Source: Parcubacteria bacterium C7867-007 (GTDB taxonomy: Bacteria > Patescibacteriota > Minisyncoccia > Phycocordibacterales > Phycocordibacteraceae). From it: 64,000 bases of DNA. A program made the position numbers and the translations under genes. The notes below the pieces were generated by a model, which was not told where the DNA came from, made no database searches, and was given only the letters and a program-made list of their open reading frames with translations. The stretch lies in assembly GCA_001189195.1 (NCBI GenBank), contig LFCQ01000006.1, forward strand, positions 56,841 through 120,840, written 5' to 3'. Positions 4,811-63,296 of the stretch are shown here, piece by piece (position 1 is the first letter of the stretch; every line of letters begins with the position of its first letter).

Positions 4811-6454
4811 ATGGCACTCGAAGGACACAAATACATATTCGTTCTCGGTGGCGTCATGTCGGGCGTTGGTAAGGGGGTCGCCACCTCAAGCATGGGACTT
4901 ATCCTGCAGCAGCGTGGATACGGTGTGAACCTCGTAAAGATCGACCCGTATCTAAACGTAGACGCGGGTACCATGAATCCAACAGAGCACGGAGAGGTGT
5001 TTGTACTCAAGAGTGGTCTTGAGACAGATCAGGACATGGGTAACTATGAGCGCTTCCTTAACCGTGATCTAGGGCCGGAAGACTATATGACCTCAGGTAT
5101 GGTGTACCAGACGGTTATCAACCGTGAACGGGCACTGGGATATCACGGAAAGTTTGTTGAAACTATCCCCCATGTTCGAGATGAAATCATTGATCGCCTA
5201 ACCACAGCTGCGGCACATAACGGAAGCCGTATCTCTGTGATCGAGATTGGAGGAACCGTGGGTGATTTTCAGAATGCTCTTTTCATTGATGCTGCTCGTG
5301 TGATGCGTCTCAAGAATCCTAACGATGTTCGCTTTGTCCTTGTTTCGTACCTTCCGGTACCAAACACCATTGGTGAAATGAAGACCAAACCAACACAGAG
5401 TGCAGTGCGTGAACTGAACTCATATGGGGTGCAGCCAGATTTCATCGTTGCTCGATCTAATCATGCGATGGACGAGAAACGCAAAGAGAAACTAGCTATA
5501 TGGTGCAACGTGCAGCCTAACCACATAATCTCTGCGCCGGATGTGGACTCTATCTATGATGTACCACTCAACTTTGAGCAGGATAACCTAGGAGACCTCC
5601 TTCTAGATGCGCTCTCTCTTTCCAAAGAGAAGGTTGCTGATTTCACTGAATGGAATAAGTTTGTCGCAGGAACAAAGGTAAAGGACGCAGAGGTTAAGAT
5701 AGGAATTGTTGGTAAGTATTTTGATACGGGAGACTATATTCTTTCTGATGCATATCTCTCAGTTATTGAGGCACTTAAATTCTCTGGTGCAGAACTAAAA
5801 GTGAAACCAAAGATTGAGTGGATCAATGCAAAGAAGCTTGAAAGCGATGAGGATCTTGAACAGCTCAGCCAATACGATGGCATTATCGTTCCCGGTGGAT
5901 TCGGGGAGACTGGTATTGAAGGGAAGATTCGTGCAGCTCGGTTCTGCCGCGAGAAAAAGATTCCATACTTTGGCCTTTGCTATGGAATGCACATGTTAGT
6001 GATTGAATATGCACGCAATGTTCTGGGTCTTGAGGGTGCACATACGGTAGAGATCAACGCAGAGACAAATTATCCTGTGGTGGATGTGATGCCGGATCAG
6101 AAGGCGCATATCTCTGAAGGGAAGTACGGAGGTACCATGCGTCTTGGCTCATATACAGCAAAGCTTGGTGAAGGAACCATTGCACGTGAGGCATATGGAG
6201 CCGATGCTGTTGAGGAGAGACATCGTCACCGATACGAAATCAATCCTGAATACGTACCACAACTCATTGAGAAAGGTCTGGTGTTCTCTGGTACTAGTCC
6301 CGATGGGGTGCTTATGGAAATTGCTGAACTCCCAAAGAGTGAACACCCGTTCATGCTTGGGTGTCAGTTCCATCCTGAACTCCAGGCTCGTCCTCTTGCA
6401 CCGCACCCACTCTTCACTGCCTTCCTAAGGGCATCCATAGAGAAGAAAGGGTAG
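4811..6454 (+). CDS. pyrG: CTP synthase
   Basis: N-terminal GGVMSGVGKG synthetase motif and C-terminal glutamine amidotransferase domain. Confidence 0.9.
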   Translation: MALEGHKYIFVLGGVMSGVGKGVATSSMGLILQQRGYGVNLVKIDPYLNVDAGTMNPTEHGEVFVLKSGLETDQDMGNYERFLNRDLGPEDYMTSGMVYQTVINRERALGYHGKFVETIPHVRDEIIDRLTTAAAHNGSRISVIEIGGTVGDFQNALFIDAARVMRLKNPNDVRFVLVSYLPVPNTIGEMKTKPTQSAVRELNSYGVQPDFIVARSNHAMDEKRKEKLAIWCNVQPNHIISAPDVDSIYDVPLNFEQDNLGDLLLDALSLSKEKVADFTEWNKFVAGTKVKDAEVKIGIVGKYFDTGDYILSDAYLSVIEALKFSGAELKVKPKIEWINAKKLESDEDLEQLSQYDGIIVPGGFGETGIEGKIRAARFCREKKIPYFGLCYGMHMLVIEYARNVLGLEGAHTVEINAETNYPVVDVMPDQKAHISEGKYGGTMRLGSYTAKLGEGTIAREAYGADAVEERHRHRYEINPEYVPQLIEKGLVFSGTSPDGVLMEIAELPKSEHPFMLGCQFHPELQARPLAPHPLFTAFLRASIEKKG

Positions 6455-6497
6455 CCGTTGATTTTAATAAATATAGTGTTATAGTTACGTTAGAGTC

Positions 6498-6512
6498 GTA
6501 TCAGTTCGATAC
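6498..6512. promoter_or_regulatory. operator-like palindrome GTATC-AGTTC-GATAC upstream of XRE regulator 1
   Basis: inverted repeat 22 nt upstream of TTG start; paralogous site at 7023-7037 carries compensatory changes. Confidence 0.45.
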
Positions 6513-6533
6513 GAAGTATTTGGGGAGAGTGTC

Positions 6534-6914
6534 TTGGACGAAATTGATATCAACCTCGGTCGTCGTTTGCGTCGCCGTCGCCGTCTGTTGGGTCTGACCC
6601 AACAAGAACTCGCACATGCAAGTGGGGTTCGATTTCAGCAGATCCAGAAGTATGAGTGTGCCGCGAACCGCATGAGTGCCGCTCGTCTCTGGCAACTCGC
6701 TGAAGTTCTGGAGGTCCCGGTCTCCTACTTCTACGAGGGCCTCACCCGTAATCAACGGGAAGCTCTGGAACAGGAGACGGTCTCGTCAGCGAACGCAGCC
6801 ATGGCTAGCAAGGAGACGCAGGACCTGATCCATGCGTACTACAAGCTCGGAGAACGTCCTCGGCGACGCCTCCTCGATCTTGCTAAAGCCATGAACGGCG
6901 AGGTCGAAGCGTAG
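6534..6914 (+). CDS. XRE-family HTH transcriptional regulator, PraR/PhrR-like (TTG start, GGAGAG SD)
   Basis: RLRRRRRLLGLTQQELA...GVRFQQIQKYE...SAARLWQLAEVLEVPVSYF; about 60% GC. Confidence 0.75.
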   Translation: MDEIDINLGRRLRRRRRLLGLTQQELAHASGVRFQQIQKYECAANRMSAARLWQLAEVLEVPVSYFYEGLTRNQREALEQETVSSANAAMASKETQDLIHAYYKLGERPRRRLLDLAKAMNGEVEA

Positions 6915-6934
6915 AACACCCAGAAAGAAACACA

Positions 6935-6965
6935 CCGGCGGCCCCAAGGGTCGCCGGTTCTTTTG
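6935..6965 (+). terminator. intrinsic terminator CCGGCGGCCCCAAGGGTCGCCGG + TTCTTTT
   Basis: GC-rich hairpin with T tract; identical copy at 7332-7362. Confidence 0.8.
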
Positions 6966-7022
6966 TGAAAAGAAGGAATCATTGCTTTGAGCAAGAAAAG
7001 TGTTACAGTCCATTCAGGTTTT

Positions 7023-7037
7023 ACATCAGTTCGATGT
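7023..7037. promoter_or_regulatory. operator-like palindrome ACATC-AGTTC-GATGT upstream of XRE regulator 2
   Basis: same architecture and spacing as 6498-6512. Confidence 0.45.
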
Positions 7038-7059
7038 GACGAATGAGCGGGAGAGTGTT

Positions 7060-7308
7060 TTGGAAGATATCAATTTGCATGTCGGAAGGCGTATGCGCAT
7101 ACGCCGTCGTCTGGCAGGTTTCTCTCAGCAACAGGTTGGGGCTAAGTGTGGGGTGACCTTCCAGACGGTCCAAAAGATGGAATCTGGTCAGGTCGACATT
7201 TCGATAAAGCGACTCTGGAAACTCAGTGAGGTATTGGGTGTCCCCATAACCTACTTCTTCGATGGATACGGTGAAACTGATGACGGTTCTCCAGTAACCT
7301 CCTCGTAA
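7060..7308 (+). CDS. XRE-family HTH transcriptional regulator, paralog of 6534..6914 (TTG start; the ORF track extends it to 7000)
   Basis: nucleotide-level conservation with copy 1, including the GGGAGAGTGT-TTG ribosome-binding region. Confidence 0.7.
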   Translation: MEDINLHVGRRMRIRRRLAGFSQQQVGAKCGVTFQTVQKMESGQVDISIKRLWKLSEVLGVPITYFFDGYGETDDGSPVTSS

Positions 7309-7331
7309 CAGCGGTCTTCAAGAAGACTGTG

Positions 7332-7362
7332 CCGGCGGCCCCAAGGGTCGCCGGTTCTTTTT
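7332..7362 (+). terminator. intrinsic terminator, duplicate of 6935-6965
   Basis: identical hairpin CCGGCGGCCCCAAGGGTCGCCGG + T tract. Confidence 0.8.
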
Positions 7363-7485
7363 ATGGGTAACAAACCCCTCCCACATACGTCTTATACAGT
7401 GGATCCCCATAATGGGGGATAATCCAAACTTCATAGTTCACATTGCTATACTTATTAGTATTAAAAGGTTTTAACAGAATCATCC

Positions 7486-7746
7486 ATGTCTCAGAACACC
7501 AAGGTAGCGGTGGCGATAGCAGTGATAGTAGTGCTCGGGGTTGGTGCCTATTATTGGTACCAGCAAATGATGCCGCAGGAGGACAGTACGTTCACCACGG
7601 CAACCAGTACCGCTCCTTCAGGTACGAGCACCACCGATGACAGTCTTCTTGAAGACACCGCTGCTATTGATGCCGAACTTAAGGGTCTCACCGCAGACCA
7701 AGCAACGGTAGAGAGTTCAGTGGATGATTCAGAGAAAACCTATTAG
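7486..7746 (+). CDS. small membrane-anchored protein with Thr/Ser-rich acidic tail
   Basis: N-terminal TM followed by a low-complexity region. Confidence 0.4.
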   Translation: MSQNTKVAVAIAVIVVLGVGAYYWYQQMMPQEDSTFTTATSTAPSGTSTTDDSLLEDTAAIDAELKGLTADQATVESSVDDSEKTY

Positions 7747-7770
7747 CAGTCGCTAATCCACATTCTATAT

Positions 7771-8688
7771 ATGAAAAACATAACCACTCCTGCAGTAGCG
7801 CTCGCGGTACTTATTGCCGCAACTCCATTCGCTGCATTTGCAGAAAGCATGGTAGTAGAGGGTAGTGCGGGCGGAGATCTGCGCATAGACCAGCCGATTA
7901 AAGGTGAAAACATTGCCCCGCTATATATACAGGGGAAGCCAATTATAAAGGTTCGTGAGGGCGCATCTTCAACCATTCAGATACGAGGTGCAGAGAAAGT
8001 TGAACAGAAGCGTCCAGAGCCTGCGATGGTAAAAGCAAAGGTTGCTGCAGCTGCAGATACTGGAATCGATGCACGTATTCAGAAGCTCAATGATGTACTT
8101 ATCCGTTTAGATAAGACTGAACGTCTTTCAGACAGTGCACGTGCATCTATTAAAGCAGCCGTAACTGGCCAGATTCAATCATTGAAAGATGTGAAAGTTA
8201 AGATTGAGACAAACAGCACTAGCACGGTGAAGGAAAGGATGAATACCGCCAATCAACCCTTCCGTGCTGCGGGCCTCATCCTGCCAAAGGCAGCAATCAC
8301 CGCTGCAGCAGATCGCATCATGACGATCGCAGGACAGATGGAAGTATTCTCAGCAAAGATCGAAGCACGTATTGATGCTGCGTCTGCTGCAGGTACCGAT
8401 GTATCAGCGGCACGTACGGCACTTGCAAACTTTGATGCAAAGGTTGCTAGCGCAAAGGTGAATGCACAAGCAGCTGCAAAACTCGTTGCCACTGTTTCTG
8501 CGGACAAAGAAGCGGATGAAGCGACCTTCAAAGCAAATGTTGCAGCACTTAGAGAGGCAAAGTTAAAGATTGATGCGGCACAAGCAGACCTAAAGGCTGC
8601 GCGTACTGAGATCGGTAACCTCCTTAAGAGTATTAAGGGCAAGGGAGAAGTACGTGCTGATGCGTCGGTTAAAGCATCCGCTCAATAA
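7771..8688 (+). CDS. secreted Ala-rich coiled-coil protein
   Basis: signal peptide MKNITTPAVALAVLIAATPFAAFA followed by Ala/Lys-rich heptad-like sequence. Confidence 0.5.
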   Translation: MKNITTPAVALAVLIAATPFAAFAESMVVEGSAGGDLRIDQPIKGENIAPLYIQGKPIIKVREGASSTIQIRGAEKVEQKRPEPAMVKAKVAAAADTGIDARIQKLNDVLIRLDKTERLSDSARASIKAAVTGQIQSLKDVKVKIETNSTSTVKERMNTANQPFRAAGLILPKAAITAAADRIMTIAGQMEVFSAKIEARIDAASAAGTDVSAARTALANFDAKVASAKVNAQAAAKLVATVSADKEADEATFKANVAALREAKLKIDAAQADLKAARTEIGNLLKSIKGKGEVRADASVKASAQ

Positions 8689-8700
8689 CCCCACTCATCC

Positions 8701-9144
8701 ATGTTGGACCTCGCCATAAACTACTACGCGGTACTCGGTGCAGGAATTCTGGGAGTCGTGCTAGGTATGCTTTGGTATGGTCCAATCTTTGGAAAGACCT
8801 GGATGAAAGAAATGGGCGTAACTCCTGAAGAGGTGGCGGCATTCCGTTCAGACAAGAAGAAGATGAACGAGATGAATCGCAACTATGTTATTGTTGCAAT
8901 CTCATCATTCGTACTAGCGTTTGTCTTGAATCTCATCCTTATACTCACCGCTGCATATACGCAAACCTTAAGTCTAACGATTGGTTTGACCGTGTCTTTC
9001 TGGGTATGGATAGGGTTTATTGTCCCCGTTACGCTTAACGGAGTGCTCTGGGAGGGGAAGAGTATTAAATACTGGATCATTGTATCTGGGTATTACCTCG
9101 TCTCGCTCACTCTCATGAGCATGATTCTTGCGTACTGGATGTAG
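8701..9144 (+). CDS. DUF1761-family membrane protein
   Basis: WYGPIFGKTWMKEMG motif, 4 TM segments. Confidence 0.55.
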   Translation: MLDLAINYYAVLGAGILGVVLGMLWYGPIFGKTWMKEMGVTPEEVAAFRSDKKKMNEMNRNYVIVAISSFVLAFVLNLILILTAAYTQTLSLTIGLTVSFWVWIGFIVPVTLNGVLWEGKSIKYWIIVSGYYLVSLTLMSMILAYWM

Positions 9145-11996: not shown

Positions 11997-12791
11997 ATGT
12001 CAAAAGACATGCTCGGCCCGCTTCCGCGGGCTCTCGTTCAGGTGCCGAACAGGCATCACGGTCTCGTACTGGACATTCTCCACAAGCTCGCAGGTGGGCA
12101 GGGGGATTCCGTGCGAAGTAATCTGAGTGCGGCACTTCGGGCACCATCTGAACCTGTGCGGCAGCAAGCTCCGCCGGTCGTACCTATTACGGATGTACCT
12201 GCGGAGTATCGAGCGTTTTTCGAAGCTCTGCCGCCGCTGGATCGTCAGTGGGTGCTCGAGAATCCCCGTACTGCCGTTCCGCTATTCGCACGAGCTGTTG
12301 CTACGGCGCATATCGAGAGCTATCCCTTGGTGCTTGTCGGGACCGCCGACTTTGCTGAAATCAGTGAATTCCGTCCTGCTGAGAAATATCAGCCAGGACA
12401 GCAAATCGACGGCATTCTAATATCACCGCAAATGCATAAGAGCTTCAAGGAGCTTTGCCAGACGGTTGAGCACAACACGCCTGCTGCGACACTGAGATTC
12501 CATTCCTCAAATACCAAGGCCAAAGCATCCAGAATTCTGAGTAGCTTCGGCGACAAGGCAGACACCACGCTCGGCCAGCTCTGGGAATTGATCCAACGGG
12601 AAGAGAAGGATGATCTCCTTCAGGCCAGCCTGCACACGACCATCTACATGTGTTTCCGTAAGGCCGACGGCAACCGTTGTTACGTCTCTGCTTCGTACGC
12701 ACCAGACGGCTGGTACTTCCGGGTGAGGTTTGGTGAGACTGGCTACCATGGGAGGCCCCCGAATAAGGTCGACCGCTTTATCACTCACTGA
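11997..12791 (+). CDS. hypothetical protein (264 aa), about 60% GC
   Basis: ORF with GC-rich codon usage distinct from backbone. Confidence 0.45.
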   Translation: MSKDMLGPLPRALVQVPNRHHGLVLDILHKLAGGQGDSVRSNLSAALRAPSEPVRQQAPPVVPITDVPAEYRAFFEALPPLDRQWVLENPRTAVPLFARAVATAHIESYPLVLVGTADFAEISEFRPAEKYQPGQQIDGILISPQMHKSFKELCQTVEHNTPAATLRFHSSNTKAKASRILSSFGDKADTTLGQLWELIQREEKDDLLQASLHTTIYMCFRKADGNRCYVSASYAPDGWYFRVRFGETGYHGRPPNKVDRFITH

Positions 12792-63116: not shown

Positions 63117-63296
63117 ATGAACTTCTTCGGCCTAGGTATCCCCGAGATACTGCTCATCCTCTTTATTCTCCTATTATTCTTCGGTAAGGATAAGCTACCT
63201 GAACTCGCAAAGAGTATCGGGCACTCATTCAAGGAGCTTCGTGAAGGATTTGAGGGTGGCACAAAGGGCGAACAGAATGGAACCAAGAAAAAGTGA
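63117..63296 (+). CDS. tatA: twin-arginine translocase TatA/E (59 aa)
   Basis: MNFFGLGIPEILLILFILLLFFGKDKLPELAKSIGHSFKEL; under 60 aa so not in the ORF track. Confidence 0.8.
   Translation: MNFFGLGIPEILLILFILLLFFGKDKLPELAKSIGHSFKELREGFEGGTKGEQNGTKKK

Follow-up and report, generated by a model that had tools for sequence, protein, structure and literature searches.

The genome of Parcubacteria bacterium C7867-007, a member of the candidate phyla radiation (CPR, or Patescibacteria) of 0.7 Mb and 48% GC from Hanford groundwater (PMC4508563), carries two head-to-tail genes of XRE-type regulators downstream of the CTP synthase gene pyrG, here named XRE1 and XRE2, and each gene is preceded by a palindrome with an AGTTC centre. 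In a preliminary description of this DNA, the palindromes were taken as operators, one for each regulator, and the proteins were likened to PraR and PhrR of the Alphaproteobacteria. The locus raises the question of what the palindromes are, DNA operators or RNA stems, and of where the two regulators came from. It was analyzed within a stretch of 64,000 nucleotides (nt) of this genome (the window), to which all positions refer, and the features of both modules lie on the + strand. The best explanation, which as a whole is given a probability of about 0.55, combines an acquired StaR module, a leader stem and a duplication: the module is a StaR-type XRE regulator from the Caulobacteraceae, duplicated in one lineage, with an inherited stem-loop and a promoter of a new type.

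XRE1 and its relatives

The XRE1 gene (6534-6914, from the list of open reading frames, ORFs) encodes a protein of 126 amino acid residues, and its TTG start aligns with the ATG of the homologs. The protein has an N-terminal helix-turn-helix (HTH) domain (HTH_3, Pfam PF01381, residues 12-66, E = 4.8e-11) and a C-terminal region (ERPRRRLLDLAKAMNGE in XRE1) that is conserved between XRE1 and StaR (ERPRRRLLDLAKAMNGE / ERPRRRLLDLAK). Thousands of relatives were returned by the protein search. Proteins that are 88-90% identical to XRE1 are encoded on contigs of 65-70% GC (L086, P0011), and on the contigs of the closest relatives a lipid-A acyltransferase gene lies upstream and an inositol-phosphatase gene downstream. 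The relatives with a name are Phenylobacterium proteins, and to one of them, named staR at NCBI, XRE1 is 76% identical over 100% coverage; it is ∼68% identical to the Caulobacter StaR; the Caulobacter members of the XRE1 clade start with MGND or MASMGN, in agreement with the published staR cloning primers. The Phenylobacterium-type signature (ECAANRMSAARLW / ECAANRMSAARLWQLAEVLEVP) is also present in XRE1. When profiles were compared, XRE1 scored 147 bits with the Caulobacteraceae StaR profile, versus 128 and 108 bits with those of the other sets. In a neighbor-joining tree, XRE1 and the corresponding protein of a second genome, Parcubacteria C7867-004, were nested among Phenylobacterium-like sequences, with a fine scale that the tree does not resolve.

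PraR and PhrR have been reported as orthologs of CdxA that cluster apart from StaR (PMC10688885). XRE1 falls outside the CdxA/PraR cluster, an indirect assignment that was made via StaR orthology and the published clusters. Judged from its sequence, XRE1 is a StaR xenolog, not a PraR/PhrR ortholog. The family label given at first was correct as to the radiation, since all of these proteins belong to the same alphaproteobacterial one, but incorrect as to orthology, because PraR and PhrR go with CdxA and XRE1 is of the StaR type. When collections of genomes, metagenomes and viruses were scanned with XRE1, the useful close matches among those listed were L086, L087 and L154, and the FQQIQKYE pattern was found to be ubiquitous in Alphaproteobacteria. 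Two alphaproteobacterial loci (L039:2986-3740 and L137:3938-4770) each contained two XRE paralogs ∼600-700 nt apart, so tandem duplication recurs in the XRE family.

Compared with the donor-type genes, XRE1 showed a DNA identity of 75%, a synonymous difference (pS) of 0.77, which is saturated, and a nonsynonymous divergence (dN) of 0.087. Since the synonymous sites are saturated at 88-89% protein identity, the XRE1 protein is under strong purifying selection. The GC content drops from ∼66% in the donor-type genes to 57% in XRE1 (61% at third codon positions), and it is 50% in XRE2 and 48% in the window. The value of ∼60% that had been ascribed to both genes was thus too high, and of the GC-rich island that had been proposed only the first part held, as XRE1 stands out as a GC-rich foreign gene whereas XRE2 is close to the window. 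An identity of 89% between a CPR protein and its Caulobacteraceae relatives is not compatible with vertical descent. The XRE family is universal in Alphaproteobacteria, and XRE1 is nested inside it (in the tree and among the matches listed). Module 1 was acquired from a Phenylobacterium-like donor and retained under the purifying selection described above. A phage source of XRE1 was considered and rejected, the best match to an annotated phage being 40% over the full length and the matches on viral contigs reaching at most 64%, in the HTH alone (among the matches listed).

Parcubacteria C7867-004 has one syntenic copy of the gene, in the pyrG-DUF1761 interval, in three assemblies. This StaR-like protein is 85% identical to XRE1, versus 58% for the pyrG proteins and 44% for the DUF1761 proteins; it is almost unchanged in the CPR while the housekeeping proteins diverged far more. 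The contrast of 85% with 58% speaks against the simplest form of our explanation, since the history may have been more complex than one ancient acquisition: either the protein is under extreme constraint, or it arrived, or moved from one CPR bacterium to another, after the two lineages had split. In a third Parcubacteria/Paceibacterota lineage, whose ABC-F protein is 79% identical to that of C7867-007, a truncated StaR-type gene of 102 codons (ECAANRMSGARLW) was observed (L154:3941-4249, VFSW01000257.1). The surroundings of this gene are different; it has a sigma-70-like promoter and a terminator of its own, and it lacks a leader stem.

The leader stem-loop as RNA element or operator

Upstream of XRE1, a sigma-70-like promoter was predicted by a consensus scan (TTGATT-16-TGtTATAGT, 6458-6485), and 10 nt 3' of its -10 element a stem-loop of 7 base pairs (bp) with a 5-nt loop begins (TCGTATC-AGTTC-GATACGA, 6496-6514, read from the sequence; RNAfold centroid -7.9 kcal/mol). 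It contains the core palindrome GTATC-AGTTC-GATAC (6498-6512), the arms of which extend to a perfect 7 nt, TCGTATC/GATACGA. Upstream of XRE2, a weaker promoter-like site (TTGCTT-16-TGtTACAGT, 6982-7009) is homologous to promoter 1 by alignment and falls under the threshold of the consensus scan (3/6 and 4/6 hexamer matches); it is followed by stem-loop 2 (TTACATC-AGTTC-GATGTGA, 7021-7039; RNAfold centroid -6.1 kcal/mol), which contains the core palindrome ACATC-AGTTC-GATGT (7023-7037). As RNA, stem-loop 2 has 7 pairs (UUACAUC/GAUGUGA), one of them G·U; as DNA, it has 5 contiguous Watson-Crick pairs and one outer T-A beyond the T·G. Relative to stem 1, two double compensatory changes (G-C to A-U and U-A to C-G) and one C-to-U wobble were observed, none of them disruptive. 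Both palindromes with their AGTTC centres had been noted before, as had the compensatory nature of the differences between their arms, and both observations were confirmed; the palindromes are separated from their start codons by 21 and 22 nt, not 22-23 nt.

At alphaproteobacterial staR loci, a stem of the form (C)CGTCCC-N5-GGGACG(G) lies ∼40-55 nt upstream of the start codon. In 37 of the 40 loci this donor stem stands exactly 15 nt 3' of a sigma-54-type motif, YGGCNN-N5-TTGC, and the other three fit on inspection; staR leaders with both motif and stem are exemplified by L014:2880-2935 and L086:3920-3975 (loci L006-L168). Both elements were present at every Caulobacteraceae-type staR locus that was retrieved, the stem having 5-7 bp and a 5-nt loop. 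A promoter-anchored test was performed, in which the stem was scored at a fixed offset from the sigma-54 motif alone, so that ascertainment bias was avoided. Among the Caulobacteraceae-type loci (n = 38), 5/5 inner pairs were found in 33 and 4/5 in 4, and the shifted controls gave 5/5 pairs in 1 of 304. The targets of the sigma-54 activator relay ShkA-ShpA-TacA include StaR (PMC5590869), and the sigma-54 motif at staR agrees with this. No description of a staR leader stem-loop was found in the searched literature on staR and its relatives, and a conserved stem-loop 15 nt after the staR sigma-54 promoter across the Caulobacteraceae adds something new to what is known of a much-studied gene. XRE genes of Rhodobacterales, Hyphomonadaceae and Maricaulales showed good TGGCAC-N5-TTGC motifs, mostly without a stem at this offset (the non-Caulobacteraceae loci with the sigma-54 motif are L023, L027, L038, L059, L065, L113, L120, L126, L147, L149, L153 and L156); sigma-54 control may be ancestral to the XRE radiation and the stem specific to the Caulobacteraceae.

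Stem 1 of the window has the same outer CGT..ACG, inner C..G and 3' flank ACGAAG as the closest donors, from which it differs by CC-to-AT and GG-to-AT changes. Stem and start codon are 38-39 nt apart in the window and 41-43 nt apart in the closest donors. As stem and flank are homologous, the staR mRNA leader, stem-loop included, was part of the transferred DNA. The place of the donor sigma-54 -24/-12 motif is occupied by promoter 1 ahead of XRE1, where the sigma-54 motif is absent, and the XRE gene of C7867-004 is preceded by the same promoter element, TGTTATAGT. In the CPR lineage, a sigma-70-like promoter with an extended -10 element would thus appear to have displaced the sigma-54 promoter, and the cross-phylum transfer can be read in detail, with the coding sequence and the leader kept and the promoter changed from sigma-54 to sigma-70. 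In all three CPR leaders the stem stands 10-11 nt 3' of the predicted -10 hexamer, which by consensus spacing would put it at ∼+4 of the predicted CPR transcript. If the sigma-54 start lies ∼12 nt after the -12 GC, the position would be the same in the donors. A likeness to the tRNA T-loop (GTTCGA in the loop) was also considered and rejected, as the flanks do not pair accordingly.

The pairing of the stem was then assessed in an alignment of 34 leaders, in which 89.5% of the cells were paired and 6 of the 7 pairs showed double changes. None of 500 shuffles reached the observed values, and when the partner was slid only 32-48% of the cells were paired. In the inner five pairs, 16 cells were U·G on the sense strand versus 3 that were non-pairs, and the one-sided changes of the inner stem were almost all C-to-T in the 5' arm. 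A double change to GTGCC/GGCAC was seen in L128. Both leaders of the window fold the stem; no T tract follows 3' of it, and the ribosome-binding site is not sequestered.

The competing explanation holds that the palindromes are DNA operators, that each paralog is an autorepressor, and that the half-sites co-evolved with the recognition helix. [quoted passage not shown] The motifs from chromatin immunoprecipitation (ChIP) of Caulobacter XRE proteins consist of one strong and one weak half-site, with which the near-invariant, half-site-like right arm GGGAC of the donors may be compared, and the recognition helix of XRE2 differs from that of XRE1 at four positions (GVTFQTVQKME versus GVRFQQIQKYE; R33T, Q36T, I37V, Y40M).

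The XRE1 helix itself, however, is unchanged while the arms and the spacer vary. GVRFQQIQKYE is identical in XRE1, in the C7867-004 protein and in the closest Phenylobacterium-like donors, and over the entire HTH only three residues distinguish XRE1 from the C7867-004 protein, whereas the arms read GTATC/GATAC at XRE1, GCGTC-N4-GACGC with a 4-nt spacer in C7867-004, and GTCCC/GGGAC in the donors. With the same helix, symmetric two-base changes of the arms and an altered spacer, an operator of a homodimeric repressor is unlikely for copy 1, so that the proposal of a separate operator evolved by each paralog fails for XRE1. Against the operator also stand the one-sided changes, which favor U·G on the sense strand (16 versus 3, as above), and stem 2, which reaches 7 pairs only with G·U. 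In the published table of top hits from ChIP sequencing (ChIP-seq) of StaR, no peak was labelled staR, which is weak evidence, the staR locus tag not having been mapped.

Motif searches of the 64-kb window were in line with this, in that no further operator-like site was found in any of its promoters and no candidate regulon emerged. GTATC-N5-GATAC with up to 2 mismatches occurred 37 times versus 24 expected in the window, a mild excess; GTCCC-N5-GGGAC was not enriched there, and CAAC-N5-GTTG had 0 matches, the local palindromes TATC-N5-GATA and CATC-N5-GATG sharing its geometry only. A second perfect GTATC-N5-GATAC was observed at 63136-63150, within a tatA-like gene (MNFFGLGIPEIL...) and inside its codons 6-11, and is probably a coding coincidence.

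Several observations weigh against reading the palindromes as an RNA stem. The right arm GGGAC of the donors is almost invariant and their spacer is always 5 nt, a geometry that the PraR operator CAAC-N5-GTTG also has (PMC5527310); the element could be a protein-binding DNA site in the donors, or could work both as DNA and as RNA. Taken whole, the leaders are no more stable than shuffled sequences (z = -0.4 and +0.4), and the hairpins are of modest thermodynamic stability. The two copies share the 11-nt block ATCAGTTCGAT without a difference, which hints at a constraint that is sequence-specific and not purely structural. Finally, the +4 position relies on consensus promoter predictions. On balance, we still lean somewhat towards palindromes that are mainly a 5'-terminal stem-loop of an RNA leader. 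The operator is weakened by the identity of the helix and the RNA-type changes of the stem, as far as these can be read from sequence, and we regard it as rather unlikely; the remainder would fall to both functions together or to something else. The most plausible roles of the RNA stem would be protection of the 5' end of the mRNA or recognition by an RNA-binding factor, both of which are generally known of 5'-terminal stem-loops. The locus is a caution that covarying palindromes upstream of regulator genes need not be operators.

Module 2 and the surrounding locus

Both modules were found to consist of a promoter, a leader, a ribosome-binding site, a regulator gene and a terminator, which bears out the tandem pair described at first; they align at 71% column identity. 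The Shine-Dalgarno site of XRE1, GGGGAGAG (6522-6529, read from the sequence), lies 4 nt ahead of the TTG, and that of XRE2, GGGAGAG (7049-7055), lies inside the exact block GGGAGAGTGT that is common to both modules. The XRE2 gene (7060-7308, from the ORF list) encodes 82 amino acid residues from a TTG start and has the HTH only (HTH_3, 57.9 bits, E = 1e-15), without the StaR C-terminal region. The TTG starts and GGAGAG sites of the two genes had been recognized correctly. The start of XRE2 is annotated differently in two assemblies, at the internal ATG 7093 by NCBI (71 residues) and at TTG 7060 by JGI (82 residues); TTG 7060 and its Shine-Dalgarno site are homologous to the start of XRE1. The exact blocks between the modules are the -10 element, ATCAGTTCGAT and GGGAGAGTGT-TTGGA.

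Each gene is followed by an intrinsic terminator, found by scanning. Terminator 1 (6934-6964) has an 11-bp GC-rich stem, a 3-nt loop and a T tract, with a folding energy of -22.7 kcal/mol (z = -3.3), and terminator 2 (7331-7361) is identical to it in sequence. The identity extends over 30 nt (6935-6964 and 7332-7361), and the terminator core CCGGCGGCCCCAAGGGTCGCCGG occurs exactly 2 times in 64 kb, with 0 expected, so that the statement that the same terminator follows both genes was substantiated. The terminator of C7867-004 differs in sequence from the C7867-007 pair. Identical terminators beside a divergence of ∼35% elsewhere suggest gene conversion or a constraint at the level of the sequence; the terminators are native to the CPR.

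The XRE1 and XRE2 proteins are 41-48% identical. The dN between the copies is 0.53 and falls almost entirely on the XRE2 branch, and XRE2 has lost ∼45 residues of the C-terminal region relative to XRE1. It matches XRE1 in its start codon and in the length of its N-terminus, it shares RLW-L-EVL-VP with the Phenylobacterium-type StaR, and it scored 91 bits with the Caulobacteraceae StaR profile versus 86 and 78. On these sequence comparisons, XRE2 is quite probably an in situ tandem duplicate of module 1, from promoter to terminator, that arose in the C7867-007 lineage. Decay into a pseudogene is unlikely, because the XRE2 ORF is intact and its HTH_3 score is above that of XRE1. The good HTH signature that XRE2 kept despite its fast divergence would suit a putative new or modulating DNA-binding role.

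The alternative, that XRE2 is a short XRE gene acquired independently, from a family member or a phage, with its flanks homogenized later, draws on a result that tells against the duplication: in an exhaustive search, the best single-domain matches of XRE2 were 55-58% identical, so that it is nominally closer to some unrelated members of the family than to XRE1. The motifs RMRIRR and FFDGYGE are common to XRE2, P0122 and P0152, the GC content of XRE2 is fully ameliorated, and short HTH-only homologs occur on viral contigs (among the matches listed). An independent origin is nevertheless improbable, as the promoter, hairpin, ribosome-binding site, start context and terminator are all homologous to those of module 1, the N-terminal length and the TTG start equal those of XRE1, and the top profile score is again that of Caulobacteraceae StaR. 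No other close relative of XRE2 was found among 5.8 billion proteins or 1.8 billion cluster representatives, which fits a fast-evolving local duplicate.

The gene order of the locus is pyrG (4811-6454), XRE1, XRE2 and orf86, and no alphaproteobacterial staR synteny was seen in the window. The pyrG product of the window is KND50410.1 of Parcubacteria bacterium C7867-007, and XRE2 is identical as a protein to AB202_02035 of the metagenome-assembled genome of C7867-007. That XRE1 is an artifact of assembly or binning, a Phenylobacterium fragment fused to a Parcubacteria scaffold, as its 88-90% protein identity to alphaproteobacterial genes and its GC content above the local background might suggest, is extremely improbable given its DNA identity of 75% with saturated synonymous sites and its GC content of 57% instead of 65-70%, the scaffold of 170 kb with CPR genes flanking it on both sides, the XRE1 junctions that are the same in the NCBI, JGI and Logan assemblies, the AT-rich sigma-70-like promoter and CPR-type terminators, and the syntenic C7867-004 copy in three further assemblies.

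The interval from pyrG to DUF1761 is a variable island (4811-9144 in the window and L003:3510-8217). In C7867-007 it contains XRE1, XRE2 and two orphan ORFs of 86 and 305 codons without a Pfam match, and in C7867-004 an Exo_endo_phos gene, a single XRE gene and metK on the opposite strand. Elsewhere in the window, an ORF of 264 codons and no assigned function (11997-12791) lies in the GC-richest kilobase (55.5%) and could be another foreign gene. In the Rfam search of the window, tRNAs alone reached the gathering score, and 6400-7450 had no match at E <= 1. Neither XRE protein reached the cut-off of any NCBIfam family. The sub-threshold NCBIfam matches of XRE1 and XRE2 were the HTH repeats of the Wolbachia prophage male-killing protein Wmk and the phage repressors RstR and DicA, which probably mirror the general phage-like XRE fold only.

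Comparison with known systems

The C proteins of restriction-modification systems autoregulate via palindromic boxes at their own promoters. The best sequence match in the PDB was C.BclI (2b5a), a weak one (E = 2e-4); like the regulators of the window, C.BclI is a small XRE/HTH_3 protein, of ∼80 residues. No restriction-modification genes adjoin the XRE genes of the window.

PraR, PhrR and CdxA, which act in adhesion, R-bodies and stress, belong to the same radiation of small XRE proteins, with the motif RRRxLGxTQxxLAxxxGxxFQQIQKYE. The arm and spacer geometry of the PraR operator resembles that of the window palindromes, although CAAC-N5-GTTG itself is absent from the window, and no anti-repressor context of the CinS type was seen at the window locus.

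Stem-loops at the 5' end stabilize some bacterial mRNAs, as in the ompA leader. The element of the window is like them in being a short stem-loop a few nt from the predicted 5' end, with pairing, more than sequence, conserved in the CPR copies. It differs in that the sequence of the donor staR stem (GGGAC) is itself conserved, which a pure stabilizer does not need.

StaR of C. crescentus and its orthologs in the Caulobacteraceae, regulators of stalk and holdfast that control stalk length and repress hfiA, are matched by XRE1 over its full length, with both HTH_3 and the C-terminal region, and a homologous leader stem-loop stands at a similar distance from the start codon (38-43 nt). XRE1 differs from them in its Parcubacteria genome, its sigma-70-like promoter, its TTG start and the compensatory changes of its stem. 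A CPR cell is not expected to have the known StaR targets (hfiA and the stalk genes), and the regulon of XRE1 must be different. Very few recognizable transcription factors are present in CPR/Patescibacteria. The hosts of these bacteria are, to our knowledge, mostly unknown, and the donor clade of Phenylobacterium-like Caulobacteraceae provides a testable hypothesis on the partners of Parcubacteria.

A further idea, which we consider speculative and quite improbable, is that these groundwater Parcubacteria, presumed to be episymbionts, captured the developmental and adhesion regulator StaR together with its leader and that the near-perfect conservation of the protein reflects a need for compatibility with the regulation of the donor. 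We know of no route by which XRE1 would reach the host cell. If the idea were true, through binding of the same DNA sites or through heteromerization with the XRE proteins of the host, it would single out Phenylobacterium-like Caulobacteraceae as the hosts of this CPR clade, and it would be a case of host-regulator mimicry by a cellular parasite. TgrL of phage phiCbK, an XRE homolog of the Caulobacter adhesion regulators that binds the same sites and heteromerizes with them, gives an earlier example of a Caulobacter genetic parasite with a homolog of a host regulator. The phage homologs differ from the case of the window, as their identity to XRE1 does not exceed 40%, or 64% in the HTH alone on viral contigs (among the matches listed), whereas XRE1 is a near-copy of the chromosomal StaR in a cellular genome.

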